NCBI GenBank assembly: GCA_964187785.1
Contig: OZ076409.1
Coordinates: forward strand, 52,764,001 to 52,828,000
Source of the DNA: Amphiscolops sp. MND2022
Lineage: Eukaryota
DNA length: 64,000 nt
Reading direction: 5' to 3'
The notes beneath the pieces were generated by a model, which did no database searches, had not been told where the DNA came from, and saw only the letters and a list, made by a program, of their open reading frames with translations. The position numbers were made by a program, and so were the translations under genes. Shown one piece after another: positions 29,037 to 56,400 of this stretch (positions within the stretch are counted from its first letter, which is position 1; every line of letters starts with the position of its first letter).

Positions 29037-31811
29037 GGGGAAACGGAAATCGGACTAAAGAAATTGAACTAATGGAATTAGGACTAACAAGCTCAAAATT
29101 TCTGAAACGTTCATGTGGAATAGAACTAATTTCGTATTTTCTCAAACAGGAATTAGAACTAATTTGTTACGGGAATTGGAACTAAAAACAGGAATTAGAA
29201 CTAATTTGTTACGGGAATTAGAACTAAAAAAAAAATGGGAATAAGACCTAAAATGCGGAATGAGACCCAAGGGGAGAACGGAATAGTATCTAAAGGAATA
29301 ATATCTAAAGTTTTTCAAAGTATAAAACGTGCCTTTGATATTTCCCCATTTCCTCTAATGCCCCGCGGCCCCTTGGGGCCGCTTATGTTCTCATCTTGCT
29401 AAGCGAGGTCGAACAGGAGCAAAGACCCAGCGGGAACGGAGACCGCGAAGCGATCGTAGTGGGAACTGGTCTTTGCGACGGTGAGGGCGAGCGTGCATAC
29501 ACCGAATATGCCCCGAATTTAGAAGGAGACAGTACTGAAAATTTTGTGAGACATTTACGAAAGGTAAAATTTTATTCTTGATTGAAATGATTTGAGATCT
29601 GACACTTTTATAAAATCAATGGAAGGAAAAAATAATGATTGTATTAATTTTATGTTGATCAATTGTATTACGTTACTTTTGTACTACTTTCATTCAGATA
29701 TAAGTGTCATTTCCTACTTTCATGTTCCACGTTTCCAATTTGAATTTTGTTGTACCACTTTTGTGTTGGATGTTTACAATTGAACATGTCGTGATTTTGT
29801 CAATTTGATCTACGTAATTGCAAATTTTCCGTGTCAAAAGTTGTTTTAGTCCTCTTTCAATTAGTTCTACTTCCATTAGTTCTAAGGCGGCACTAAAAAA
29901 GAATCAATCCTATTTCCATTAGTCCTATTTCAGTTTTGATTATTAGTCTTTTTTCATTAGTCCAAATTCCTGTTTCCCGAACGGAACAAGACCTAGGGAA
30001 TCAGAACTAAATCGAAAACGGGAATAAGACCTAAAGTAAAATCCATTTTTCAGGAATATGACCTAAAAATTTAGGCCTTATTCCTACTTTTTGGAAGAAA
30101 ACCTATTGGCGAAAAACGACAAACAAGACCTAAAAGAGTGGGAATTAGACCTAAAAACGGGAATAAGACCTAAATGCGAAATGAGACCCATGAGGAGAAC
30201 AGAATAGTCTTCAAAGGACTAATATCAGAAGTTTTTCAAAGATTGACACGTGCTTCTGATATTTCCCCATTTCTTCTAGTGCCCCGCGGCCACTTGGGGC
30301 CGCTTATGTCCTCATCTTGCTAAGCGAGGTCGAACAGGAGCAAAGACCTAGCGGGGACGGAGATTGCGAAGCGATCGTAGTGGGAGCTGGTCTTTGCGAC
30401 GGTGAGGGCGAGCGTGCATACACCGAATATGCTCCCACATTAGAAGGGGAAAGTATTGAAAAATTTGTGAGACATTTACGAAAGGTAAAATTTTATTCGT
30501 GAATGAAACGAATTGAGAAATGACTATTTTATAAAATCAATGGGAGGAGAAAAACAATGATTGTATCAAAAGTATTACTTTTGTACTACTTTCATGTTCC
30601 AGGTTTCCAATTTGCATTTTGTACCATGTTTTTATCCGCTTCTGCGTTTTTTTGTTGTACTACTTTTATGTTCGTACAATTGTACACAAATTTTTACGAT
30701 TGAACATGTCGTGATTTTGTCAATTTGATCAACGTAATTGCAAATTTGCGTGCCAAAATTGTTTAGTCCTATTTCAATTAGTCCAATTTCCATTAGTAGT
30801 CTAAGGCGGCACTAAAAAAGAATTAGTCCTATTTTCAAGAGTCCTTTTTCAGTTTTGATCATTAGTCCCATTTCATTAGTCCAAATTCCTGTTTCCCGAA
30901 CGGAACAAGACCTAGGGAATCAGAACTAAATCGAAAACAGGAATAAGACCTAAAGTAAAATCCATTTTTCAGGAATATGACCTAAACATTTAGGCCTTAT
31001 TCCTACTTTTTGGAAGAAAACCTATTGGCGAAAAACGACAAACAAGACCTAAAAGAGTGGGAATTAGACCTAAAAACGGGAATAAGACCTAAATGCGAAA
31101 TGAGACCCATGAGGAGAACAGAATAGTCTTCAAAGGACTAATATCAGAAGTTTTTCAAAGATTGACACGTGCTTCTGATATTTCCCCATTTCTTCTAGTG
31201 CCCCGAGGCCACTTGGGGCCGCTTATGTCCTCATCTTGCTAAGCGAGGTCGAACAGGAGCAAAGACCTAGCGGGGACGGAGATTGCGAAGCGATCGTAGT
31301 GGGAGCTGGTCTTTGCGACGGTGAGGGCGAGCGTGCATACACCGAATATGCTCCCACATTAGAAGGGGAAAGTATTGAAAAATTTGTGAGACATTTACGA
31401 AAGGTAAAATTTTATTCGTGAATGAAACGAATTGAGAAATGACTATTTTATAAAATCAATGGGAGGAGAAAAACAATGATTGTATCAATAGTATTACTTT
31501 TGTACTACTTCATGTTCCAGGTTTCCAATTTGCATTTTGTACCATGTTTTTATCCGCTTCTGCGTTTTTTTGTTGTACTACTTTTACGTTCGTACAATTG
31601 TACACAAATTTTTACGATTGAACACGTCGTGATTTTGTCAATTTGATCAACGTAATTGCAAATTTGCGTGCCAAAATTGTTTAGTCCTATTTCAATTAGT
31701 CCAATTTCCATTAATTCTAAGGCGGCACTAAAAAAGAATTAGTCCTATTTTCATAAGTCCTTTTTCAGTTTTGATCATTAGTCCCGTTTCATTAGTCCGA
31801 ATTCCTGTCTC
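29037..31811. mobile_element. Three head-to-tail foldback-like MITE units (29037-29978, 29979-30897, 30898-31811), each with core type B
   Basis: Outer TIRs GGGAAACGGAAATCGGACTAA / TTAGTCCGAATTCCTGTCTCGC. Arms are built of inward-facing GGAATTAGAACTAA, GGAATAAGACCTAA and TTAGTCC sub-repeats. Units 2 and 3 have a 919-bp period. Cores at 29321-29511, 30242-30432, 31161-31351. Confidence 0.8.
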
Positions 31812-34631: not shown

Positions 34632-35519
34632 TCTTTCGTGCTAAATTTTGAGGATCCAGCAAGAAAAAAATTGACAATAGTACTAGGCTTCGCAGACTTC
34701 GTGAATTGATTCTATATGTGCTGACACCTCTGAAAGTTTTTGTAATTCGAGACTTGTAACGATTGATTCCAAACCAGATCGAACTTCAGTCAAAACTGAA
34801 TTTCTGGAAAGCAAGTTTAGTTCTGCTGAAGATACAGAAGAATCAGGTGTCAGGTTAGGGCTTAGTTTTTTACAGGAAAGCCATGGCGATCAGGTGAATG
34901 TATTAGGGTAATTCATCAGAAACAATTTCAATTGCTTTGGCAAATCAACATACAAGCTCTCGACGGAAAATTTCCAACTCATCTTCGACAGGAAACTGAC
35001 ATATGTATCAACCTTGGTTTCATTGCAAACCACCGGAATATGTCGAGTTTTTAGAGAGTACGTTTTTTTTCGAGTTTGGCGAAAATGGTAGAAAGTTCGT
35101 GAATTTTTCCCTCTCAACTTACCATATTTTCAACAAAAAAAAAACAAACTATCAGCGAAATGTGTCTAAAGACAACATCTCCACTTTTACCAGCGCACAG
35201 TGGCCGCTTGAGGTCGCCAGCGGACGTCTCGTCAAGTCACCTAAAGTAGTTGGAAAGATTTAGATTTCTGCAAACTATAGACTAAACTTACTACTGATCT
35301 TACGACCATATCTCATTGACATGTAGTTATTGAGCGAAAACCATCCTCACTTTCAGATACATTAGCTAACGTTGAAACATTCTCAAGAAGCAGAAAACAA
35401 CACACAAGGCTTTCGACCCAGATTGATTTCACACGAAACATATTTGAAGATCCTCCGGTCCGTCTACTTCTGAAATGTCCGTTCTGTGAACATCCGGAAC
35501 ACGGGAAATGAGTCTAAAA

Positions 35520-35805
35520 AGAGGGAAATGTTTTTTCCTAATCAAAACTGGAAAAAAACACAACCTATATGCTAAAAACTGCTGACTCACCACAGTTCGG
35601 TTGTATGGACTAACATCTTGAGTCAATAACTGAGACCAGAGTGAACCGACTTGAACACAAACATCTTTCTAGATGATAACCAAGGAGTTTTTCGGAATGG
35701 ACGATGTACCTAAACGATGCCTAAAAAAATTTCGGAGTTATAAAACGAATGAAAAGAAGAAGCTGTTGGGATCGATTTTGAAAAAAACTATTGACAGTGT
35801 AGATG
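35520..35805 (+). mobile_element. Decayed non-LTR retrotransposon RT fragment (also ~37760-38045, ~41060-41340)
   Basis: LDDNQGVFRNGRCT and IDFEK..DSV resemble the non-LTR RT motifs QxGFR and D(L/F)xKAxDxV. Confidence 0.5.
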
Positions 35806-35820
35806 TAGAGGTGAGTCCGA

Positions 35821-36760
35821 TGTTGTGAACCTAAACATGTTTCTTTCAATTCCATGCTGTGCAGTATAAAACTAGTCATCTCTTATTCATGGCCACCTTT
35901 ATATATTCCCGCCTAATTTAATTGTTGTGCTAATTTCATCACGCTTATCATTCACTCAACAAAAAGCCGTGCTTTCAGAATATAGACTCAACTATCTTAA
36001 ACTTTGCTCTCCTGCACAAGAATAATTGGTACTTTGTGATCTAGAAAGAGGAATTCGTAAATAAGGAAGCACTGATGCCATCGAAATTAGGACACCGTCT
36101 TAAGACTGGAAAACCAGCTGAAAACAATTCTGACCACACCGCTCAGTCAATTGACGCTTCTCGAACTCGCTACATTGAAAGTTGGGTTGAATAAAATGAA
36201 GAAGCAGTCAGAAAATTTCTCGAGGTCACCAAACAGATTCGAAAGAAGTTTGAAATGGTTGATGTAACACCTGAACAACTGGAACAAGAAATCAATAAGG
36301 TTTTTAATGTCGACTTCAAATTAGAAACATTCATCAGCCATATTGAGACTGTAATTGCTCAATACGAGGGAGGATCAAGTACTGAACCACAACCTTGCAA
36401 CGATTTGAATACACAACCGCACCGACATTCATCGGAAATGAAAAAACTCCCGACGATCAATTTGCCCTGATTAAATGGCAAGAATTCGAATTGGATGCCA
36501 TTCTTCGGCCTCTTCAGAGGCACTATCGATGGCAATACCTCTTTGAGCCCCATCAACAAACTGTGCAGTACTTGAAAACTTCATTTAAAGGTGAACCCGC
36601 TGAAACATTCGCTCACCTTCCAACGACAAGCGCAAATTTTGAGCTTGCTGTTCAACTTTTATTGCAAAGATATGCCAATGAACTTATGATCAACTTCACG
36701 CTTATAGACTCAAAAGTCGTGTTCAGGCCTTCACAGCAAGAATTATCAGAAGAGCTATGA
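35821..36760 (+). mobile_element. 5' fragment of a Bel/Pao LTR element: LTR (35821-36018), PBS, gag (also 38062-39001 and ~41358-42312)
   Basis: TGTTGTG...TGCACA LTR-like segment with TGGTACT at 36027. Gag DUF1759-like sequence KLPTINLP*LNG...WMPFFGLF...KL-YLKTSFKGEPA...NFELAVQLLLQRY. Confidence 0.75.
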
Positions 36761-39014
36761 AATATTCTCAAAGTTAATCTTGAAAAACAATGGCTTTTGA
36801 ATCAGTGGTTGTCGAGACAAGATTTTTTGCGACTGTGAAGGCAACTTGGTAGTTCTCTTGCTTTACCAAAATTTTAGCTTGTGTGGTACCAGGGAGTCGC
36901 CATTTACCAACGCAGTCACATTGCGTTTCGCACGGACCTATGAACTTGTTCCTAGCGTCCGGGGGTATTATGCTGACTTTCAGAATGGCTGGTGGCTGAT
37001 CAGTACTGCACAAAGCAGCAGCAGTCTCGAGTTCATCATCTGATGACTGATGCAAGGCGGCAACCGTGGATCTACATACTGACGCCCAGTGTCCTTCTTT
37101 AGAGCATTCGAGACAAGCGTCTCTTCTGGCTGGGCACTTTGAGCGTGGGTGCTGGTTCAGACAGCAAAACTGACAGTGCGAACGAGGCTTTTGGTCTGTT
37201 GGGCAGCGGAGGTGCCAAGTCGATCAGGCTGTCGCCGAGTTGTCTGGGAGAACAGCCTGGCCGTGACTAGAGTTGCAGGTTCAGCACTTCGAAAAGGTTT
37301 CGAAAAGTCACTTGATTGTTCGACAACACAAGCAAGCGATATGCAGCTGTCGATCTCGTCCTGGGAGTCCTCCATCTCCAAATGTCACCAGACCTGAGCC
37401 CCGTTAATAAGGTCTCTCGTACGCTATAGTCTTTACGTGCTTGGACGGTCAAACTGGTGCATTCGCAATCTTCAATGAGTCGTTTCTGCCTTCCTGAAAA
37501 CTCTACGTTGACAACTATAGACTAAACTTACTACTGATCTTACGACCATATCTCATTGACATGTAGTTATTGAGCGAAAACCATCCTCACTTTCAGATAC
37601 ATTAGCTAACGTTGAAACATTCTCAAGAAGCAGAAAACAACACACAAGGCTTTCGACCCAGATTGATTTCACACGAAACATATTTGAAGATCCTCCGGTC
37701 CGTCTACTTCTGAAATGTCCGTTCTGTGAACATCCGGAACACGGGAAATGAGTCTAAAAAGAGGGAAATGTTTTTTCCTAATCAAAACTGGAAAAAAACA
37801 CAACCTATATGCTAAAAACTGCTGACTCACCACAGTTCGGTTGTATGGACTAACATCTTGAGTCAATAACTGAGACCAGAGTGAACCGACTTGAACACAA
37901 ACATCTTTCTAGATGATAACCAAGGAGTTTTTCGGAATGGACGATGTACCTAAACGATGCTTAAAAAAATTTCGGAGTTATAAAACGAATGAAAAGAAGA
38001 AGCTGTTGGGATCGATTTTGAAAAAAAACTATTGACAGTGTAGATGTAGAGGTGAGTCCGATGTTGTGAACCTAAACATGTTTCTTTCAATTCCATGCTG
38101 TGCAGTATAAAACTAGTCATCTCTTATTCATGGCCACCTTTATATATTCCCGCCTAATTTAATTGTTGTGCTAATTTCATCACGCTTATCATTCACTCAA
38201 CAAAAAGCCGTGCTTTCAGAATATAGACTCAACTATCTTAAACTTTGCTCTCCTGCACAAGAATAATTGGTACTTTGTGATCTAGAAAGAGGAATTCGTA
38301 AATAAGGAAGCACTGATGCCATCGAAATTAGGACACCGTCTTAAGACTGGAAAACCAGCTGAAAACAATTCTGACCACACCGCTCAGTCAATTGACGCTT
38401 CTCGAACTCACTACATTGAAAGTTGGGTTGAATAAAATGAAGAAGCAGTCAGAAAACTTCTCGAGGTCACCAAACAGATTCGAAAGAAGTTTGAAATGGT
38501 TGATGTAACACCTGAACAACTGGAACAAGAAATCAATAAGGTTTTTAATGTCGACTTCAAATTAGAAACATTCATCAGCCATATTGAGACTGTAATTGCT
38601 CAATACGAGGGAGGATCAAGTACTGAACCACAACCTTGCAACGATTTGAATACACAACCGCACCGACATTCATCGGAAATGAAAAAACTCCCGACGATCA
38701 ATTTGCCCTGATTAAATGGCAAGAATTCGAATTGGATGCCATTCTTCGGCCTCTTCAGAGGCACTATCGATGGCAATACCTCTTTGAGCCCCATCAACAA
38801 ACTGTGCAGTACTTGAAAACTTCATTTAAAGGTGAACCCGCTGAAACATTCGCTCACCTTCCAACGACAAGCGCAAATTTTGAGCTTGCTGTTCAACTTT
38901 TATTGCAAAGATATGCCAATGAACTTATGATCAACTTCACGCTTATAGACTCAAAAGTCGTGTTCAGGCCTTCACAGCAAGAATTATCAGAAGAGCTATG
39001 AAATATTCTCAAAG

Positions 39015-39937
39015 TTAATCTTGAAAAACAATGGCTTTTGAATCAGTGCTTGTCGAGACAAGATTTTTTGCGACTGTGAAGGCAACTTGGTAGTTCTCTT
39101 GGTTTACCAAAATTTTAGCTTGTGTGGTACCAGGGAGTCGCCATTTACCAACGCAGTCACATTGCGTTTCGCACGGACCTATGAACTTGTTCCTAGCGTC
39201 CGGGGGTATTATGCTGACTTTCAGAATGGCTGGTGGCTGATCAGTACTGCACAAAGCAGCAGCAGTCTCGAGTTCATCATCTGATGACTGGTGCAAGGCG
39301 GCAACCGTGGATCTACATACTGACGCCCAGTGTCCTTCTTTAGAGCATTCGAGACAAGCGTCTCTTCTGGCTGGGCACTTTGAGCGTGGGTGCTGGTTCA
39401 GACCGCAAAACTGACAGTGCGAACGAGGCTTTTTCGAGGTCTGTTGGGCAGCGGAGGTGCCAAGTCGATCAGGCTGTCGCCGAGTTGTCTGGGAGAACAG
39501 CCTGGCCGTGACTAGAGTTGCAGGTTCAGCACTTCGAAAAGGTTTCGAAAAGTCACTTGATTGTTCGACAACACAAGCAAGCGATATGCAGCTGTCGATC
39601 TCGGCCTGGGAGTCCTCCATCTCCAAATGTCACCAGACCTGAGCCCCGTTAATAAGGTCTCTCGTACGCTATAGTCTTTACGTGCTTGGACGGTCAAACT
39701 GGTGCATTCGCAATCTTCAATGAGTCGTTTCTGCCTTCCTGAAAACTCTACGTTGGATTCGTTGTCCTTTTGACTAGACCTGAGCATTTGATGACGAGCA
39801 TAGAGGACTCTCTTGGGCTTCAGAAACTGCCTGTCCAACGTTATCAGAGCAACGGGAAACCTTGCACAAATTTCGAAGAATGCGAAATATTCGGAGCCGA
39901 CAAGTGTACGAAGAAAAACTAACTTATCTGCATCCAA
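39015..39937 (-). mobile_element. Ty3/Gypsy gag fragment with Cys/His knuckles (also 36774-37510 and 42368-42985)
   Basis: CQFCGLNQHPRSKCPARRDACLECSKEGHWASVC is a typical Gypsy nucleocapsid; the upstream gag core is frameshifted. Confidence 0.8.
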
Positions 39938-42900
39938 TGTAGGGGCGTGAATAACGTCTAAGGATTAACGTCTAAAGAAATACCGCCTGAATTTTACTCA
40001 ATTTTCAGGTAGATGTAGACGTTATTCCTGTGTTGTAGATGTTATTCCGGATTTTGAAATATTGATTCTTGTGCTGATAGGTTCTTCTCTTGCTCTAAAT
40101 TTTCAGGAATGAACTATGGAGTAATCGAAGGCCACTTAAGAGGAACAAATGTCCATGTGTCTGATGGGTATTTCTCCATTTTGGTGTTAAATTTGGAGGA
40201 TCCAGCAAGAAAAAAATGACAATAGTACTAGGCTTCGCACACTTCGTGAATTGATTCTATATTTGCTGACACCTCTGACGATTTTCGTAATTCGAGACTT
40301 GTAACGATTTATTCCAAACCAGATCGAACTTCAGTCAAAACTGAATTTCTGCAAAGCAAGTTTAGTTCTGCTGAAGATACCGAAGAATCAGGTGTCAGGT
40401 TAGGACTTAGTTTCTTACCGGAAAGCAATGGCGATCAGGTGAATGTAATAGGGTAATTCATCAAAAACCATTTCAATTGCTCTGGCAAATCAACATACAA
40501 GCCCCCAACGGAAAGTTTCCAACTCATCTTCGACAAGAAACTGACATATGTATCAAATTGGGTTTCATTGCAAACCACCGGAATATGTCGAATTTTTAGA
40601 GAATAGGTTTTTTTCGAGTTTGGCGAAAATGGTAGAAAGTTTGTGAATTTTTCCCTCTCAACTTACCATAATATAAAAAAAACTATCAGCGAAATGTGTC
40701 TGGAGACAACATCTCCACTTTTACCAGCGCACAGTGGCCGCTTGTTGTTGCCAGCGGACGTCTCGTCAAGTCACCGAAAGTAGTTGGAAAGATTTAGATT
40801 TCTGCACACTATAGACTAAACTTACTACTGATCTTACGGCCATATCTCAATGACATGTAGTTATTGAGCGAAAACCATCCTCACTTTCAGATACATTAGC
40901 TAACGTTGAAACATTCTCAAGAAGCAGAAAACAACACACAAGGCTTTCGACCCAGATTGATTTCACACGAAACATATTTGAAGATCCTCCGGTCCGTCTA
41001 CTTCTGAAATGTCCGTTCTGTGAACATCCGGAACACGGGAAATGAGTCTGAAAAAAGGGAAATGTTTTTTCCTAATCAAAACTGGAAAAAAAAACACAAC
41101 CTATATGCTAAAAAATGCTGACTCACCACAGTTCGGTTGTATGGACTTACATCTTGAGTCAATAACTGAGACCAGAGTGTAGCGACTTGAACACAAACAT
41201 CTTTCTAGATGATAACCAAGGAGTTTTTCGGAATGGACGATGTACCTAAACAATGCCTTAAAAAATTTCGGAGTTATAAAACAAATGAAAAGAAGAAGCT
41301 GTTGGGATCGATTTTGAAAAAAAACTATTGACAGTGTAGATGTAGAGGTGAGTCCGATGTTGTGAACCTAAACATGTTTCTTTCAATTCCATGCTGTGCA
41401 GTATAAAACTAGTCATCTCTTATGCATGGCCACCTTTATGTATTCCCGCCTAATTCAATTGTTTTGCTAATTTCATCACGCTTTTCATTCACTCAACAAA
41501 AAGCAGTGCTTTCAGAATATAGACTCAACTATCTTAAACTTTGATCTCCTGCACAAGAATAATTGGTATTTTGTGATCTAGAAAGAGGATTTCGTAAATA
41601 TGGAAGCACTGATACCATCGAAATTAGGAAAACCAGCTGAAAACAATTCTGACCACACCGTTCAGTCAATTGACGCTTCTCGAACTCACCACATTGAATG
41701 TTGGGTTGAATAAAATGAAGACGCAGTCAAAAAATTTTTCGAGGTTACCAAACAAATTCGAAAGAAGTTTGAAATGGTTGATGTAACACCTGAACAACTG
41801 GAACAAGAAATCAAAAAGGTTTTTAATGTCGACTTCAAATTAGAAACATTCATCTGCCATATTGAGACTGTAATTGCTCAAGACGAGGGAGGATCAAGTG
41901 CTGAACCACAACCTTGCAACGATTTGAATACAAAACCGCACCGACATTCATCTGAAACGAAAAAACTCATGAAGATCAATTTACCCTGATTAAATGGCAA
42001 GAATTCGAATTGCATGCCATTATTCGGCCTCTTCAAAGGCACTATCGATGACAATAGCTCTTTGAGCCCCATCAACAAACTGTGCAGTACTTGAAAACTT
42101 CACTTAAAGGTGAGCCGGCTGAATTTTTCGCTAATTTTTCAACGACACGTACAAATTTTGAGCTTGCAGTTCAACTTTTATTGCAAAGATATGCCAATGA
42201 ACTTATGATCAACTTAACGCTTATAGACTCAAAAGTCGTGTTCAGGCCTTCACATCAAGAATTATCAGAAGACATACAAAATATTCTCAAAATTTATCTT
42301 GAAAATCAATGATTTTTGAATCAGTGGTTGTGGAGACAATGTTTTTTGCGACTGTGAAGGCAACTTGTTAGTTGTTTTGGTTCACCACAATTTTAGCTTG
42401 TGTGGTACCAGGGAGTCGCCATTTACGAACGCAGTCACATTGCGTTTCGCACGGACCTATGAACTTGTTCCTAGCGTCCGGGGGTATTATGCTGACTTTC
42501 AGAATGGCTGGTGGCTGATCAATACTGAACAAAACAGCAGCAGTCTCGAGTTCATCATCTGATGACTGATGCAAGGCGGCAACGGTCGATCTTCATACTG
42601 ACGCCCAGTGTCCTTCTTTAGAGCATTTGAGACAAGCGTCTCTTCTGGCTGGGCACTTTGAGCGTGGGTGCTGGTTCAGACCGCAAAACTGACAGTGCGA
42701 ACGAGGCTTTTTCGAGGTCTGTTGGGCAGCGGAGGTGCCAAGTCGATCAGGCTGCCGCCGAGTTGTCTGGGAGAACAGCCTGGCCGTGACTAGAGTTGCA
42801 GGTTCAGCACTTCGAAAAGGTTTCGACCTGAGCATTTGATGACGAGCATAGAGGACTCTCTTGGGCTTCAGAAACTGCCTGTCCAACGTTATCAGAGCAA

Positions 42901-43228
42901 CTGGAAACCTTGCACAAATTTCGAAGAATGAGAAATATTCAGAGCCGACAAGTGTACGAAGAAAAACTAACTTATATGCATCCAATGTACGGGCGTGAAT
43001 AACGTCTAAGGATTAACGTCTAAAGGAATACCGCCTGAATTTTACTCAATTTTCAGGTAGATGTAGACGTTATTCCTGTGTTGTAGATGTTATTCCGGAG
43101 TTTGAAAAATTGATTCTTGTGCTGATAGGTTCTTCTCTTGCTCTCTAAATTTTCAGGAATGAAATATGAAAGAATCGAATGCCGCTTAAGAGGAACAGAA
43201 GTCCATGTGTCTGATGGGTATTTTTACT

Positions 43229-43757
43229 TAAATCGGAAAAAACGTCCAAAATATCAGAAAACTATGCAATTACGTCCGAAAAACAGGAAAAGGGTGTAAG
43301 ATCAAGAATCAAACGCCCAAAATATCTAAAGGTCATCGGAATACGACTGAAAAACGGAAAAAAACATAAATTTGGAGTCAGTTAAGATCTAAAACTGAAA
43401 AGTGATATGAAGTATAAAACGTGCTTCGGATGTGTCCCCATTTCGTCTAGTGCCCCGCGAGGCCCTGGGGCCGCTTATGTTCCCATCTTGCTAAGCGAGG
43501 TCGAACAGGAGCAAAGACCTAACGGGAACGAAGATCGCGAAGCGATCGTAGTGGGAGCTGGTCTTTGCGACAGTGAGGGCGAGCGTGCATACACCGCATA
43601 TGCCACACATTATGATATTTCCGGGAGTTGACATATTTATTCCTTGAGTTGGAATGGAGTTGGCTTAATTTTGTGGTCACTTGGCATAAAATTTTTGGGC
43701 CAAATGACTCGACGAAAAAATTAAGCCAAATGGTATTAAGCCAAGTCACTGGTAACC
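43229..43757. mobile_element. Core type B (43413-43603) between arms unrelated to those at 29-31 kb
   Basis: The core is highly similar to 29321-29511. The left flank has ACGYCYRAAA sub-repeats; the right flank has TTGGCTTAA/TTAAGCCAA sub-repeats ending GGTAACC. Confidence 0.65.
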
Positions 43758-43913: not shown

Positions 43914-44331
43914 GGGTGGCTGTAAATAGGACGAATTTTTCTGGTCGAAAGGATAGAGGTCGAACCTTTTGAACGAATTGCAGGGATCGAATTGAATGCG
44001 GTCGATTTTTATTGTATTTTTGTATAGCTCGGTCGCTTCGCTCCCTTCGCCAAGTAGCAACATTGAGGCATGGCCATATGGCACGTCGCTCCGCTTCGCT
44101 TCGCTCCTGCATTCAGGGCACTGGGGGTATGTGAACATATGTGACTACGTTATAATAATAATTCCGACAAAATCTGACAAGCGTTTTCATCATAGTGAAT
44201 TCAATTCGATTTGAAATTTCAGCCAATCAGATTGCAGCATAAAGAAATATTCTGCTGAATGGGACCGAATTTTCATTTTCTGCTGTATGAGACTTCTGCT
44301 GTGTGGGAATTCCCCGTAAAATTGGGTTTCC
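43914..44331 (-). mobile_element. Hybrid MITE: core type A with one CAGCAGAA-family arm and one GGTCGAA-family arm
   Basis: 43914-44014 matches the GGGTGGCTGTAAATAGG arm of 46558. Core at 44015-44154. 44155-44331 is the reverse complement of the 44517-44690 arm. Confidence 0.75.
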
Positions 44332-44364
44332 AATTTAGTAAGAGAAGTAGTAACTCTTTAAGCT

Positions 44365-46734
44365 CTCGAAAATATTGTAATGGAAGTATCTTTAGACGTT
44401 TTAGCCTTACTTTATAATCTGTTTGACATTAAAAAGCGATTTTATGTTTCACATAAAATTCGAGAAACTGATTTTTCTGTTTTTTACATGATTTTAGTGA
44501 AAAATCGGATCTCCACGGAAACCCAATTTTACGGGGAATTCCCACACAGCAGAAGTCTCATACAGCAGAAAATGAAAATTCGGTCCCATTCAGCAGAATA
44601 TTTCTTTATGCTGCAATCTGATTGGCTGAAATTTCAAATCGAATTGAATTCACTATGATGAAAACGCGTGTCAGTTTTTGTCGGAATTATTATAACGTAG
44701 TCAGATATGTTCACATACCCCTAGTGCCCTAAATGCAGGAGCGAAACGAAGCGGAGCGACGTGCCATATGGCCATGCCTCAATGTTGCTACTTGGCGAAG
44801 GGAGCGAAGCGACCGGGCCATACAACAAATATGCAAACCTGGCTGTAACAACACTAAAAGCTAGTAATTTGAATTCTGCTGTATGGGACCGAATAATCAT
44901 TTTCTGCTGTATGAATAGGCCCCAATTTTATACCCCAATTATTGGATTAGGACCCCAACCCAATAACCCAACCCAACGAAAGGCTTATACTCCCACCCAA
45001 TACAAAACAATTTTATTGAGAGACCCCAACCCCAATTATTTATAAACCCAATTCATTGGCAACTCTGAGATGGAGCGAATTCCACTGATGGCTCTTGGTG
45101 GATGTCGTCCCCAGTTTTGTGCTGTTCGACGCCGTAGATGCTTCGTGATGTGCCTCGGTAATACCACGGCGATTTTTGCTGCCATTTAGGAGTCGATTTT
45201 TTGCCTTGGCCTGGTCAGGGATATCTAGATGTGAGAAACCGCGTTATTAAAGATCTAGATATTATTGAATCTAGATCACCCATCTACGTGAGTTTCTTTC
45301 AAACTGATAAGTTCCTCTCACCGAAGTTGAGGATCCCTTTACTTTTCATCATTTTCGTCATCGTTGTTTTTCCGGGTGGCTGTAAATAGGTCGAATTTTT
45401 CTGGTCGAAAGGACCTTTTGATCGAATTGCAGGGATCGAATGGAATGCGGTCGAATTTTATCGTATTTGTTGTATGGCTCGGTCGCTTCGCTCCCTTCGC
45501 CAAGTAGCAACATTGAGGCATGGCCATATAGCACGTCGCTCCGCTTCGCTCGAAAATATTGTAATGGAAGTATCTTTAGACGTTTTAGCCTTACTTTATA
45601 ATCTGTTTGACATTAAAAAGCGATTTTATGTTTCACATAAAATTCGAGAAACTGATTTTTCTATTTTTTACATGATTTTAGTGAAAAATCGGATCTCCAC
45701 GGAAACCCAATTTTACGGGGAATTCCCACACAGCAGAAGTCTCATACAGCAGAAAATGAAAATTCGGTCCCATTCAGCAGAATATTTCTTTATGCTGCAA
45801 TCTGATTGGCTGAAATTTCAAATCGAATTGAATTCACTATGATGAAAACGCGTGTCAGTTTTTGTCGGAATTATTATAACGTAGTCAGATATGTTCACAT
45901 ACCCCTAGTGCCCTAAATGCAGGAGCGAAGCGAAGCGGAGCGACGTGCCATATGGCCATGCCTCAATGTTGCTACTTGGCGAAGGGAGCGAAGCGACCGA
46001 GCCATACAACAAATATGCAAACCTGGCTGTAACAACACTAAAAGCTAGTAATTTGAATTCTGCTGTATGGGACCGAATAATCATTTTCTGCTGTATGAAT
46101 AGGCCCCAATTTTATACCCCAATTATTGGATTAGGACCCCAACCCAATAACCCAACCCAACGAAAGGCTTATACTCCCACCCAATACAAAACAATTTTAT
46201 TGAGAGACCCCAACCCCAATTATTTATAAACCCAATTCATTGGCAACTCTGAGATGGAGCGAATTCCACTGATGGCTCTTGGTGGATGTCGTCCCCAGTT
46301 TTGTGCTGTTCGACGCCGTAGATGCTTCGTGATGTGCCTCGGTAATACCACGGCGATTTTTGCTGCCATTTAGGAGTCGATTTTTTGCCTTGGCCTGGTC
46401 AGGGATATCTAGATGTGAGAAACCGCGTTATTAAAGATCTAGATATTATTGAATCTAGATCACCCATCTACGTGAGTTTCTTTCAAACTGATAAGTTCCT
46501 CTCACCGAAGTTGAGGATCCCTTTACTTTTCATCATTTTCGTCATCGTTGTTTTTCCGGGTGGCTGTAAATAGGTCGAATTTTTCTGGTCGAAAGGACCT
46601 TTTGATCGAATTGCAGGGATCGAATGGAATGCGGTCGAATTTTATCGTATTTGTTGTATGGCTCGGTCGCTTCGCTCCCTTCGCCAAGTAGCAACATTGA
46701 GGCATGGCCATATAGCACGTCGCTCCGCTTCGCT
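44365..46734 (+). repeat. Tandem duplication with 1184-bp period
   Basis: CTCGAAAATATTGTAATGG at 44365 and 45549; paired ORFs are offset by 1184; few substitutions. Confidence 0.92.
44517..44913 (+). mobile_element. MITE with core type A and CAGCAGAA arms (copy at 45701-46097); right arm truncated by CCCAA-rich sequence
   Basis: TCATACAGCAGAAAATGAAAATTCGGTCCCATTCAGCAGAAT is inverted relative to ATTCTGCTGTATGGGACCGAATAATCATTTTCTGCTGTATGA. Core at 44691-44831. Confidence 0.7.
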
Positions 46735-46887
46735 CCTGCATTCAGGGCACTAGGGGTATGTGAACATATCTGACTACGTTATAGAAATTTCGATCCGAGT
46801 TGTTTCGATCCGCGCATTCAAAAATTTGGTATGTCGACCTGAGGACTAACTCTGATTTTCGTTCCTTCGACCTATTTCCGCCCACCC
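46558..46887 (-). mobile_element. Complete MITE with core type A and GGTCGAA/GATCGAA arms, 8-9 bp TSD (Mutator- or hAT-like)
   Basis: GGGTGGCTGTAAATAGGTCGAA ... TTCGACCTATTTCCGCCCACCC with flanks GTTTTTCC / GTTTTTTCC. Core at 46648-46783. Truncated copy at 45374-45550. Confidence 0.8.
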
Positions 46888-50400: not shown

Positions 50401-53400
50401 AATCAATAGCTTTGTTAAGAATTTTCAGTTAACAAAAGACCTCATTGTATCTAGGGAAAGTAGTTTTCATCAACTATGCTAAAATGCAAAACGGTGTCTG
50501 GGCCCTAGTCGAGATTGCTTGAACTTTTTACATGCTGCATGGAAACATGCAGGCTAGTTTTTTTAAACAAAACATCGAAAACTCAGTGAGCATGCATGCA
50601 AACATTTTGTAAAACTTCCAAGCAGTTGGTAAAATACTTGAAGCACATCCATGCATTCTGTAAAAACTTCCAGAACTTAACGAAGCCGTTTCCGGATTTT
50701 TTTTTAAAAAATGAAGCAAGAAAACGAGAGCTCCGATTGATCTTAAACATACAAAAAAGCTTGGAAAACTTATTCAAACGCTTTCTCTTTATCTTGAAAC
50801 CTACTGTACTTCATCAAAAAATAAATCCAATAGAAAAAATCAATTCAATCATTACAAAAGGGGACAATTCAGCGGTCATTACCCAGAGATATGTTTGAGA
50901 GATTTATTTGTTCTCCTGCGTTAACCCTATCCATGAGCTCAGCGGAAACCACAAGTTATTGTCAATTACCTAATCATTGTGTTGCTGTAGAAGAAAATTG
51001 GAATGATCTTACTTTAAATGGGGGTCGAAACTCTTGACGTTGATGAATCACTTTATTCAATATTGACAATGATTAATAATGGCACGTGGCAAATTATTCA
51101 AAGATTTCCATTACACTCCAGGGGACATAACTGGTGGGCACTCTTGACAGTTTCGCCAGTTTTCGTTTTGAGTTTACATTTTCGAACAATGTTGTCCGAC
51201 CCTGGATAAACTTCTGTCACAAGACCCAAGGGCCATAGTCCTCTGGGCGAGTTGTTTTCAAGAATCCACACCACTTGACCTTTCATTTTGGGATCTTTGG
51301 TCGTATGCTACTTTGATTGGGGCCTGAGAGTCGGCAAGTACTCTTTCATGAGCCTTGTCCAGAATTGATTGGCATTTGACTCGCACTGTCTATTTAGTTG
51401 AACTAGTCTATCGGTGTGTTTGTTAGCCTCTAATGTTGTCGTTGGGAAGTTGCTGCGTCGTGGGATGATGAAATGGTTGGGTGTGAGGCATTCTATGTCG
51501 TTGCTATCTGCTGAAGCTTTTGTCAGAGGTCTGCTATTCATAATTCCTTCCACTTGGCAAATGAAGGTATTGAATGTCTGTTGGGTCCAACTTTGGGTTC
51601 CAGACATTGAGTAGATGATTCTTTTTGCCATCCTGATTAGACGTTCCCAAGCTCCTCCTTCATGTGGCGTTCCAGGGGGTATGAATTTCCAATCAATTTG
51701 TTGGGATCCTAGTTTTTCTTCTATCTTTCCCAGGTCCAAGGATTTGGCTGCTGCGTGGAATGTACTCGCGTTGTCAGATGTTAAACTTGTTGGTTTTCCT
51801 CGTCGGCTTGTGAATCGTCTGATCGCTAGTAAGCATGAGTCAGTTGTCAGGTCTTCAACAACTTCGAAGTGCACTGCTCTTGTTCTGAAGCAGGTGAAAA
51901 TGCAGACGTATTGGCTGGTGCGTTGATTTCTTTGATATACAGGAAAGGGTCCAAAGTAGTCCATTCCAATGTCTTCGGAAGCTGCATGTGTCTTCGCGAA
52001 TCTAAATTCCGGCAGGTTACCCATTTTGGGTTGACTAGGTAGTTGACGTTGGCGTTTGCAGATGAAAGTTGTAGATTATTTGTTTGAGTGTGGTTGTCAA
52101 ATGGGTCATCCAGTGTTCTTGTTGCAGTATTACTCTCATGTGTTCTAGTCCTACGTGTCCTTCATCTTCGTGTATGTGCTGTATGTAGAGTCGTATGATG
52201 TAGTGTTTGGCATCTACGATTTGAGGGTTTTTTATTCGAAAGTTGATTGGGGCTTTTTGAAGTCGGCTGAGTGATCGAAGTGTTCCTTCTTGATCGAGAT
52301 ATGGGTTGAAGCTGACAATCTTGATGCGTGCTTTAACGGTTTGTGTTCTTTGGATGTCCTTGATGTCTTCTGGAAAGCTTTCATTTTGTGCGACTCTGAA
52401 AAGAATGTCTTTACTCCGTTGATAACGTTCTTTTACTGTGGATAGTCGTCGTTTGGCAAGATCCAATGTCTTGAGAATATAGAAGGTAGTTCGAAGCAAT
52501 CTTTTCCACGATGAGAATTGTTTGTAGTCCACGATTGTTTGTAGGTATGCGGTGTATTGCAGATTAGGCTGTAGGTTTGTATGTCGTCTGTTTTTGATGT
52601 CGGCATATTGTCCAGGGTGTTGGGTGTGGTGTCTTCGATAGTTCGAGGCCATAAATGTGAAGGCAACTTGAGAAAAGCTGGTCCATTCATCCATTGTGAG
52701 TGCTTGAGTTCTGTTGTCTTGATTCCTCGGGTTCCTTCGTCGGCTGGATTGAGTTTTGTAGGTACGTATTTCCAATCATCTATAGCTGTCGTGTGTCGTA
52801 ACTCGTGTAGTCGATTGGCAATATACGTTTTCTGTCGGTTGTTAATGTTGTAGATCCAATGTAAGACAACTGTGCTGTCAGTCCAGTGTGTGATCTTTGA
52901 GACTGACAGGGTCGTGTTTTTGATGAATGCTCTTTGTAATCGGTTCGACACACGACAGCTATAGATGATTGGAAATACGTACCTACAAAACTCAATCCAG
53001 CCGACGAAGGAACCCGAGGAATCAAGACAACAGAACTCAAGCACTCACAATGGATGAATGGACCAGCTTTTCTGCTATGTTCTTTGTGAGGAAGCTTGAC
53101 GTACTTCCACTGTCAAGTAGAGCATACACTGCTGTAAAGCGGTGTTGATTGTGCAGGTTGATTGGTAAAATCTGCACAGTGGCTGCTGGCTGATGTGTCT
53201 CTGTTCTGTAGTTTTCGGCTTCTGTGTTCCTTTGAAGGCAGTTGTTTGTCGATACCTTTTGTGTCACGTGAACTGATGCAGTTGTTCCTTTGTGGCTCGG
53301 GCTTTTGTCTTGAGATGCTTCCAGTGGCTGATTTCTGTTGTTTGTTCTGAATCCTTGTCTTCCGGTGAGGTGTGATGAGCTACCGGCTATCTGGAAGTCT

Positions 53401-56400
53401 CTATGAAGTAAAGTGTTGTGTCGTTTATTGCAGTTGCTATGTTGGCAGTTCTTCTTTGAAGGGCAGTTGGCAATGCGGTGGTCTTTATTCAGGCAGTTGA
53501 AACAGACCACTGTTTCTTGTAGTCATCTCTCTCTCTTCCGGGCTCTGTGCGATGAAAATTGGGCATTTGAAAATTTGGTGTCGTCCATCTCCTAGAGGGC
53601 AGGTTGCTGATTGACTTGTTGATCCTTTGCTGTTGATGGTCTGTGTTGTGAATGTCTGTAGTGTATGTAGTTGTTGGTTATCATTGTCTTCTAGTAGCTC
53701 GTATGCTTCTGCTATCGGCTTCAACCAATCGCAGAAGGTAATCAGATTTGGTCGGTCGATGCTGCGGTTGACGATGTATTGTTGCCATCGTATAAGATCT
53801 GAGGTGGGTAATTTCTTGATGGCATGTCGCAAGTTTGTTGTTGATTCCAGGTCAGCTGTGTGTTCTAAGTGCTGCAGATTGCGGATCATTCCTTTGATGA
53901 ATGTTGTGTAGTTGATGTATGATTCAGGGTTACCTTTGATTGGTGGTTGGTGGTCCAGGAGTTGTTGTATGTACGCATTGACAATTGTCGTTGCTTTTCC
54001 AAATTTTCTTTCGAGTTCCTGCAGGGCATCAATGTAGAATTGTCCGTTGCAGTGGAAATGAAGAATGGCGTCTTTTGCTTTTCCTGTAACTAATCCTTGT
54101 AGATACGCGATCTTCTGGCTGTTGCTGAGTGGCGTGTTGCCGATCATGAAGTTGAAGCGACTTCTCCAATCAGACCACTGTAGAGGGTCCCCAGTGTAGG
54201 GTTCAATGTTCATCTTTGGCAGTGTGTTCAAGTAGGGTCCAAATGTCAGGTCATATGGTATTCCATAGTGGTCTGCGGTGGCATTCGTAGCTGCATGGAC
54301 TGCGGATGCTGTTGGCAGTGACCCTTGTCGATCCTCTTGGTTGTCTGCTGCATTTGCTTGACGATTGTTGACAGTCTGTGGGGTTGAGTTGCTGTTGTCC
54401 GGTTGGGTCTGTTGTCGTCTGTGATCTTCTTCATCGTTGATGGCGTCGAAACTGACATTGGCTGCACGTCCCGTTTGATTGTTAGCGACGTCGGGTTGTT
54501 GATTAGCTGTCATGGTTTGAAAAGTGGACGCTGGCGTTATGTTCGCCTGTGTTTCGCTGAGGTGCATACTTTTCTGCGCAAGCTCATCGACTTGTAGATG
54601 AAATTGCGAGAGCTGGTCGATCAGTTCGGTTTGTTCTTCGGCTGGGGTTTCGTCAATTGCTTCATAAGTTTTCTCTTCTAAGTCTTCAAGTCTTAGTTGT
54701 ACTGTGTTTTTGTAATGGTTAATTGCAATAATGTTTGGCTTTTCTGACTCTAATTCTTTTGAAAAACTGTTCAACGCTGACTCCATTTTAGTTTTTGCAA
54801 TGTGAAGTTTTGCCTTTATTGTGGCGATTGACTTTTTCGGGGGCATGTTCATTCAAAATTGTCGGAGGGGTCACTAAAAATTGTGGAAGAAAATTGGAAT
54901 GATCTTACTTTAAATGGGGGTCGAAACTCTTGACGTTGATGAATCACTTTATTCAATATTGACAATGATTAATAATGGCACGTGGCAAATTATTCAAAGA
55001 TTTCCATTACAGTTGCTGACTTAGTATTTGAACTTCTAAATATTCTTTGAGCTTCAATATTATTTTAGCTGTGGAAAAATAAAAGCACTGAACAAACAAG
55101 ATGGAAACGTCTCACGTCGGCGCCCGCTTAAGGCTCAAAGAGCGAAGTTTTTAAAATATGCTCCGGGTGTTTCGAGTAGAATTTATTAATCATAGGAAGT
55201 ACCAAACAGGTGGCAGTTGGATGGTACTAAATTAACTTGTAGAAAAGCTTATACAAATGGCAATTCGCTGGTCTTGAATTATAGTTGATTTTTTGGAGAC
55301 CGCAAAATTGCACCATTTTTATTAAGTGCTTCAAATTCATCGAATATTTGATATCACCGGTTCGTGAGCATTTGTCAAAATAAAATTCGAGGCCAAAATG
55401 TCCATATCATTTGTATTGTTGGCAGTTTTATCCTATCAGGACATCTTCACTTAGAGGAAGTAGTCACTCAACACAACAGGACAAAACATAAGTTACTGAA
55501 GTTAGGCTCTTGTTGATATATGTTCCGAATAGTTTTTTTTACTTCAATGGAAGTCGTTACAAAAACTATAGCGCTCTAGTCATTCTAATTTTCACGTGTC
55601 GCGTTATTTTACGCTCCACAACAGTATTGTATATTTTTACCTATATTGTATATCATGTTAAGTACAATGAAGTGATGTCCCTGAATCTTTCGTTTGCAAG
55701 GTTTCGTGGAATGCCCTGTCGTGATGTACCTGTGGGACCAATGGATTTTGGGGCTAGACTGTAGCGACTATGATGTATGGGTACCTTTGGCTACTGTTGT
55801 CATCTATCTGCTGAAAGAACCTCTCCTGAGGGCCACTAATGTTAGTACTAACTTTATTATTACTGCTTATTCTTTATTTTTATCAATTTAATTTTTCAAA
55901 AGTCCTTTATTATTAATCTCCAAACCGCACTCCAGCTGCCTTTAAAAATGAAAGTCTTGTAGAAATAGGGTTGTAGATGCTTTGTGATCCAGTTTGGTGT
56001 TAACACGATGTGTATACGAAGGAAATGTTTTTCAGGTCAAAAATTTTGCTACTCAAACTCAAGAGTATGTATGCCTTCTTAACTTGATTATGACTTTTCA
56101 ATGTCTTACAGGCTCAACAACTAGAGGAAGTTATTCAGAGACAGTCGATTCTCCTTACAGTAGATAACATACAATATGAGGTTACTTTTCTTTTTATAGT
56201 TTTCTTAACATAGTTATTAGTTCTTAACCCTCAACGTTGTGTTAAAATTTCTGAATCTTTTGATTGGAAGTCTTCCCACTGTCATATAACCAGGGCTTTA
56301 TCGTGAAAATTGAATGAGTGTGTTTCAAGAGAAACCGTTCTGCATTCAGAGAACTGGTTTCAAAGAATGTTGTCTTGTTTCAGTTTCAAAAGCGCTTCTA

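Follow-up and report, generated by a model that had tools for sequence, protein, structure and literature searches.

The closest described counterparts of the elements reported here are the CMITE families of Acropora corals, MITEs (miniature inverted-repeat transposable elements) that have different ends and a more conserved interior, which is absent from the matching autonomous element (PMC2872659). Their authors propose that this interior aids transposition, and its origin is not known (PMC2872659). We analysed a stretch of 64,000 nucleotides (the window) from Amphiscolops sp. MND2022, positions 52,764,001 to 52,828,000 of the forward strand of contig OZ076409.1 (assembly GCA_964187785.1), in which a first-pass annotation had pointed to a conserved module of about 140 bp, core A, lying between inverted arms of unrelated sequence, and we followed this module and its homologue, core B, through the 1.07-Gb genome that holds the window. 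To an explanation in which the core is a selected cis module, repeatedly copied into the ends of Mutator-like elements (MULEs) and persisting by raising the mobility of the ends that carry it, we give about an even chance.

As in the CMITEs, the interior is more conserved between families than the ends, and since those elements show the same inverted pattern, the architecture is not new in kind. CMITEs are piggyBac/TTAA elements of ~100 bp with a 75-bp core, terminal inverted repeats (TIRs) of 13-14 bp and one terminal motif, in six families. Here, in contrast, the arms are long, of MULE type and built from sub-repeats, the partner transposases are only 23-41% identical to one another, two homologous cores are interchangeable, and there are more than 20 arm types; there are also chains of capture between families, core-less ancestors, and cores that double as insertion targets. 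Where CMITEs have TTAA target-site duplications (TSDs) and CC[C/T]T termini, the TSDs here are variable sequences of 8-9 bp and the termini begin with G.

Three further DNA-transposon systems are informative. The end structure, TSD and transposase domains resemble those of Muta1 from Aedes aegypti and of the Phantom elements, including Tm1, which in the excerpts consulted combine a short terminal motif, subterminal repeats of 9-15 bp and an 8- or 9-bp TSD with a FLYWCH plus MULE transposase of ~500 aa and many non-autonomous derivatives (PMC5225508, PMC5499845, PMC3169594). In the same excerpts the Aedes derivatives have heterogeneous interiors, whereas here unrelated families converge on two cores. 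Pack-TIRs and Pack-MULEs, attributed to gap filling or FoSTeST, gain an interior through template switching at microhomology during gap repair and are then amplified, as described in the part of the source consulted (PMC8277862). There a piece of a host gene is taken once, at least in that part, whereas here the same non-coding module would have been re-taken from MITEs many times. Finally, in the Stowaway element Ost35 an internal enhancer raises transposition, even when other TIRs are attached to it (as cited in PMC3660474, in the section consulted). That effect, as excerpted, was shown by assay in one family of Tc1/mariner type, whereas here we infer a benefit, across many transposase lineages.

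Among retroelements, the CORE-type superfamilies of short interspersed elements (SINEs) keep a conserved central domain and swap their ends for those of the current helper. They carry an RNA polymerase III head, whereas the present cores match neither a tRNA nor an Rfam family: no Rfam match came near the gathering score, ARAGORN found no tRNA in the window, and core B gave one anticodon-less tRNA call, only at the 70% threshold. These searches lend no support to the core as a SINE or small-RNA gene. In our literature search, to which Dfam, Repbase and subscription journals were external, the CMITEs were the sole like case of MITEs that share an interior, and no Mutator case, pair of interchangeable homologous cores, visible capture chain or use of cores as targets was reported.

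Core A is abundant and widely dispersed. Its first 29 bases have 1,789 exact matches in the genome and the reversed control has 0, which excludes chance. Genome counts of cores and termini are exact-pattern matches, family letters are labels of this analysis, and L numbers denote fetched loci. The left junction of families other than G matches 363 times, and the terminus patterns match 80 times for D, 165 for C, 146 for F, 166 for E and 1,738 for G. Sixty random 10-kb stretches held 8 fragments of core A and 15 of core B, which lay in 10 of the 60 and made up 0.50% of bases; this density implies roughly ten thousand or more copies of each core, with a wide error, the cores being clustered. From the fetched loci, which were selected by pattern rather than at random and include some segmental duplicates, we obtained 166 full-length core A copies. 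Both ends could be assigned to six typed families in 133 of these (G-G 34, C-C 29, E-E 24, D-D 21 and one miscalled D/F, F-F 20, H-H 3 and one true hybrid, that of the window), and the remaining 33 are truncated, diverged or of other families. The apparent D/F hybrid, at L116, proved to be a fuzzy-match artefact and was counted as D-D.

In total, 13 arm types enclose core A (G, C, D, E, F, H, S, T, U, V, W, the type of L383/L391/L402 and that of L438), and for 10 of them at least one copy is bounded by a TSD. Perfect TSDs of 9 bp were found in 22 of 34 G copies and of 8 bp in 23 of 29 C and 12 of 20 F copies; in D (19/21) and E (17/24) they measure 9 or 8 bp. Mismatched loci yielded a false TSD in 1 of 55 trials. 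Of the first-pass proposals, a cis module common to several transposon families fits best and is much strengthened by the 13 arm types, the second homologous core and the core-less partners described below, its function being something we infer. A role as a TATA box was set aside, as families T, K, P, O and one more are without the TATA part. CCAAT-box-like motifs recur beside core A, in the inner arms of C, F, S, T, U and V.

The second core came to light at the right ends of G, of which four in 30 (two duplicated pairs) enter a different interior of 190-200 bases, core B, so that G arms carry either core. A 28-mer of core B occurs 2,559 times in the genome; the core is nearly invariant over 37 aligned contexts and is found within at least 10 arm types, 7 of which have a TSD-bounded copy (65 full copies). 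The two cores align over their first 45 bases better than any of 1000 shuffles, and beyond this the alignment is weak (5/1000 shuffles as good). The shortest A and B families start at one homologous spot, position 9-10 of core A and 12-15 of core B. Core B folds as a series of successive hairpins (z -2.3 as DNA, -2.6 as RNA). Both cores have GC-GAA-GC loops with GA mismatches, which we take to be unusually stable DNA mini-hairpins and which the folding program does not score. When a joint A/B profile was run against 1.9 Mb of partly redundant loci with the known cores masked, no third core appeared, only a fragment of the start of core B.

The elements run from G to C, with ~9 unmatched terminal bases followed by family-specific inverted sub-repeats in a type-2 foldback arrangement. 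The genome has at least 150 MULE-domain matches, and coding elements with the same ends, either transposases or their remains, were found for F, K, N, Q, L, T, U, X, O and two more families; open frames reach 443 aa in the F partner (L287), 528 aa in the K partner (L317) and 505 aa in the N partner (L316). A domain scan of seven partner proteins detected PF10551 in all and FLYWCH in five, both domains together in the F, K, N, T and U partners and MULE only in that of L. The coding partners have no core of their own, and where one lies inside the span of a coding element (L291, L323) it belongs to a nested or adjoining MITE. From a quick, unfinished transposase tree we took nothing but the grouping of K, Q, N and L319/L330 (support 100). 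Taken together, the elements are best explained, as far as sequence can tell, as non-autonomous MITEs of FLYWCH-MULEs of the Phantom/Muta1 type. Merlin elements, which have an IS1595-type transposase and GGNRM termini, would fit the termini of C and D, not those of G, E and F; all coding partners found are MULEs, and no search aimed at Merlin was made.

In two loci (L323:2122-4481, L324:2409-4817) a core-bearing MITE is the immediate neighbour of its own coding partner, with a gap of 16 bases in L324 and one TSD bounding the pair in L323, which suggests local hopping and composite transposition. At L288-L291 (G000:C10, ~484-506 kb) there are tandem units of ~3.5 kb with open MULE frames of 470-472 aa and an inserted C MITE.

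How the cores entered these ends can be read from arms that lack them. Such core-less versions, which the first-pass annotation had advised looking for, exist in D and F. Thirty D left ends lead into a full core in 22 cases, a partial core in 1, an AT-rich native interior in 5 and arms only in 1, and one more is truncated; 30 F ends lead into a full core (19), an internally deleted core (1), a composite termed J (8), an interrupted interior (1) and a native one (1). Native D arms are mostly 83-95% identical to the D consensus, against 98-99% in five of seven D copies with a core (the lower figure in the other two is due to indels), and this greater divergence makes the core-less D versions the older ones. 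Similarly, G copies with core B are ~9% off their consensus, a value from 8 copies inflated by rearranged ones, and those with core A 2-2.7%.

Similarity between families had been described as stopping at the core edges. This is true of G against C only; other families have nested extensions in common, of ~14-62 bases on the right and up to ~25 on the left. The right extension of C is retained over ~47-62 bases in E, F and H, over 14 in D and not at all in G. Furthermore, D retains a piece of the F left arm, H the inner left arm of C together with its first right sub-repeat, and Q part of the L right arm. The nested extensions and leftover arm pieces imply that interiors were replaced by copying from other MITEs, and with the older core-less versions these capture chains imply that new ends acquired a core by copying time and again, gap repair being the probable route.

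We therefore envisage the following course of events, in which the ends would come from many different transposons and the centre would be one of the two homologous cores. After excision, repair would copy the element's own arms and then switch to a nearby core-bearing MITE. The core may act in cis as a landing pad, binding a host protein or the transposase, or being accessible or hairpin-forming, and the landing pad would favour mobilisation of the core-bearing element. In one clade the same property of the core would attract insertions and so supply the next capture, and homologous switching at the core would give rise to one-armed, immobile hybrids like that in the window.

Selection on transposing lineages is favoured, not proven, by the conservation of the core. 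Consensus cores of five families differ at 0-1 of 141 sites (99.3-100% identical) between unrelated arms, and the co-inherited extensions differ at 3/47 bases between C and F, at 4/45 plus 2 gaps between C and E and at 2/45 plus 2 gaps between E and F. In D, the youngest family, decay is 1.13% in the core and 1.1% in the arms, so that slow mutation alone does not account for the core in that family; G likewise shows equal decay in core and arms, and no consistent surplus of changes was seen at CpG sites. Cores are also kept whole: J, carried along inside a larger repeat, is the one partial core that has been amplified among 283 core A fragments, and the recurrent internal breakpoints in these and in 172 core B fragments are insertions, duplicated loci and the J passenger, in addition to one deletion common to two single copies and one possible partial-B group. 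Cores make up only 0.50% of bases in 600 kb of random DNA, yet lie inside 7 of 11 intact G...C/TSD elements.

The last figure comes from a small sample, in which one element is dubious and one a nested composite, and it heads a list of observations that weigh against the explanation we prefer. Exact-match patterns favour young copies and inflate the core-bearing share. Within families the extension varies more than the core (4.5 and 1.6% in C, 3.7 and 2.9% in E, 1.7 and 1.2% in F), which weakens the contrast seen between families. Strong folding of core A was rejected, since shuffled sequences fold just as well (z +1.7 as DNA). The flanks of D, E and F consist of cores to 0.6-0.7%, against a background of 0.48%; these families carry core A without inserting near cores, and attraction and benefit are therefore not one proven property. 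As to the coding partners, none was found for G, D or H (for G, among 100 transposase loci, some of them redundant), that of E is broken, and the C relatives L283/L291, with a MULE domain and no FLYWCH match, have arms only 78-86% alike. Nor did we find where the core ultimately came from.

The rival that survives best is that the cores are inert, MULEs clustering through chromatin or tolerance and gap repair copying the commonest neighbour, so that cores spread by abundance. Clustering is indeed real: at 16 of 27 G insertion sites a further core lies no more than 1.5 kb away on the outer side, and 3 of the 27 are directly in a core. Gap filling prefers nearby templates, according to the portion of the Pack-TIR study drawn on here (PMC8277862), hAT-like elements insert into cores too, and core A insertions are spread along the core. 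Nevertheless, passive copying does not predict that whole cores are retained while the flanks are cut freely, nor the left edge common to A and B, nor the core in D, E and F, which avoid clusters, and we consider it somewhat unlikely. A universal target hot spot was rejected because D (2/29), F (2/23) and E (3/30) have another core within 1.5 kb at near-background frequency; C (4/25) is slightly above it. In favour of the explanation we prefer, one clade does land near cores: in K/N/Q/O/X, 35 of 47 coding loci have a core within ~4.5 kb, compared with 10 of 120 random windows of 4.5 kb and 2 of 31 loci of other MULEs (mean 3.7 kb). On the same side, in core B 5 of 20 mapped insertions, from five families, start at positions 12-14 (simulated P about 0.002, positions collated by hand). 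At L028, L140, L279 and L318, ends of the L family (three loci) or P family (one) abut core A positions 37-40, a possible second preferred site.

Arm exchange raises a different alternative, namely that the core is a break-prone recombination site whose hairpins stall forks or are cut, repair then homogenising the core and swapping arms. The arm-swapped hybrid of the window is present as described, except that it spans 43914-44315: the remaining bases, to 44331, are copied flank and not arm. Its left junction is that of C, whereas at core position 41 it has the base typical of G (a G in 26 of the 29 G copies scored, an A in every one of the 84 C, D, E and F copies scored), which places the crossover within the first 40 core bases. 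The junction of flank and terminus occurs three times in the genome, always in the window, and no TSD was found at the hybrid. Its G arm, without the 9-bp deletion of the copy at 46558, is an independent G copy and not a duplicate of that one. Our best reading of the hybrid is that the adjacent inverted C element served as template for overwriting the left arm of a G element, the switch falling in those first 40 bases, and by its sequence it is a dead local recombinant. An assembly artefact was considered and is unlikely, since the units of the tandem duplication nearby differ at 3 sites and the C arm of the hybrid is distinct from the 44533 copy (2 substitutions and a 3-bp indel).

Exchange at the core is also seen in J, which joins an F left end to an old C right end across a broken core, ~285 bases substituting positions 41-88, and in L014/L015, which likewise join unlike arms. 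J (L038, L043, L044, L064, L072, L084, L092, L165-L189) is amplified only inside a larger repeat, adjoining a hAT-like end, and at L134:1500-1740 a C left arm is folded back exactly at the core start, giving a perfect palindrome. A recombination site would account for the joins in the hybrid, J and L014/L015, for the hairpin chain of core B and for the non-G allele at position 41 in 3 of the 29 G copies. It fits poorly with the rarity of hybrids, with the absence of the G allele from the 84 C, D, E and F copies and with the like decay of core and arms in D and G; moreover, it supplies no non-homologous junctions, which capture into a new family needs, and we regard it as improbable. Arms are therefore not interchangeable in the sense first proposed: ends match in 132 of 133 typed copies, no hybrid among the fetched loci has a TSD (the frequency refers to these loci and not to a genome-wide count of C-left/G-right joins), and while arm exchange at the core does occur, no mobile hybrid family was seen and the products are dead ends.

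Helitrons have a 3' hairpin near a CTRR end, and their TC...CTRR ends lie in AT (or TT) without a TSD. That the core is itself a mobile cassette, Helitron-like or moved by a recombinase and aimed at the centres of foldback elements, is largely refuted and very improbable, for although the minus strand of core B has a GC-rich hairpin whose end lies 10 bases ahead of the end of a CTAG, this CTAG is followed by A or G, not T, and is altered in several B variants, the A-B homology extends past it, native interiors are replaced and not interrupted, and none of the 166 full-length core A copies is free-standing with unique flanks on both sides, their junctions being family-specific and their family-dependent edges showing no TSD and no fixed target.

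The features of the window are collected in the table. BLASTN of core A against the window returned the five copies first reported and nothing more, and the 1184-bp tandem duplication is as described. The two C elements were correct in arms and core, with starts that had been set at 44517 and 45701; the first 16 bases are flank, and the TSD is identical at 7 of 8 bases. The complete G element stands, with an imperfect TSD, the right copy having one extra T where 8-9 bp had been reported. The window also holds four copies of core B.

Features of the window that bear on cores A and B (window coordinates)
Feature	Position	Strand	Remarks
Core B x3 in tandem array	29321-29514, 30246-30442, 31165-31361	+	array 29321..31361
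Core B	43413..43613	+	a right arm of family K follows, to 43757; core A locus begins 300 bases to the right
G-family right arm of hybrid (GGTCGAA)	43914..44012	-	matches G consensus
Core A in hybrid	44015..44154	-	96.5% identity; left junction as in C, position 41 as in G
C-family left arm of hybrid	44155..44315	-	CAGCAGAA sub-repeats
16-base flank copied from beside C element 44533	44316..44331	-	reads as a local template-switch mark, not transposition
Tandem duplication unit 1	44365..45548	+	ends within the core A of a G element, which it truncates
C-family Mutator-type MITE	44533..44923	+	CAGCAGAA arms
Core A in this C MITE	44691-44831	+	98.6% identity
Truncated G element	45374..45550	-	duplication breakpoint
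Partial core A in truncated G element	45464-45550	-	core A positions 55-141
Tandem duplication unit 2	45549..46732	+	3 substitutions vs unit 1
C-family MITE, duplicate	45717..46107	+	
Core A in duplicate C MITE	45875-46015	+	BLASTN vs window
Complete G-family MITE	46558..46887	-	GGTCGAA arms
Core A in complete G MITE	46648-46783	-	95.0% identity

Several other structures were observed in the window. A mismatched element at ~42990-43757 joins a GAATAACGTC-type left arm, the apparent start of a transposase frame, core B and a K right arm, and no TSD was seen for it. At 29213-31811 there are tandem units of ~920 bp, each with core B amid arm sequences of AGAACTAA/GACCTAA type, and kin of this array occur at L253/L254, L321 and L379. 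The stretches 44517-45070 and 45701-46254 are CCCAA-rich, start with G and resemble a foldback element in which the C element starts 16 bases in; no further copy was found among the fetched loci. Read from the list of open reading frames only, 51308-54852 (-) and 34634-42826 contain, respectively, frames like the gag and integrase of a long terminal repeat retrotransposon of Bel/Pao type, and a triplicated stretch of 2.2-2.7 kb with zinc-knuckle-like frames.

How MITEs rise to thousands of copies, and whether their interiors have a function in this, is an old question that is still open, and in the parts of the literature consulted Ost35 is the direct experimental case we found. The present system is a natural replicated experiment, in which one module stands under more than 20 end types with core-less relatives as controls, the two homologous core versions show which positions are conserved, and there are long open frames for transposases of a type proven in yeast. 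Repeat libraries built by similarity would fuse such families into false chimeras. If the core is indeed a selected cis module, an enhancer portable across transposases as dissimilar as these would be new biology and a possible tool. More tentatively, and short of an even chance, the cores may be a lasting non-coding replicator that outlives transposase families, drawing Mutator transposases to land beside it, being copied between the ends of the newcomers and letting the new MITEs out-amplify core-less relatives. If this is true, some half of the intact MULE MITEs of this genome, or more, would carry one of two long-diverged and interchangeable core versions, and the cores would live as parasites on transposon ends, as an equivalent of the CORE-SINEs among DNA transposons.

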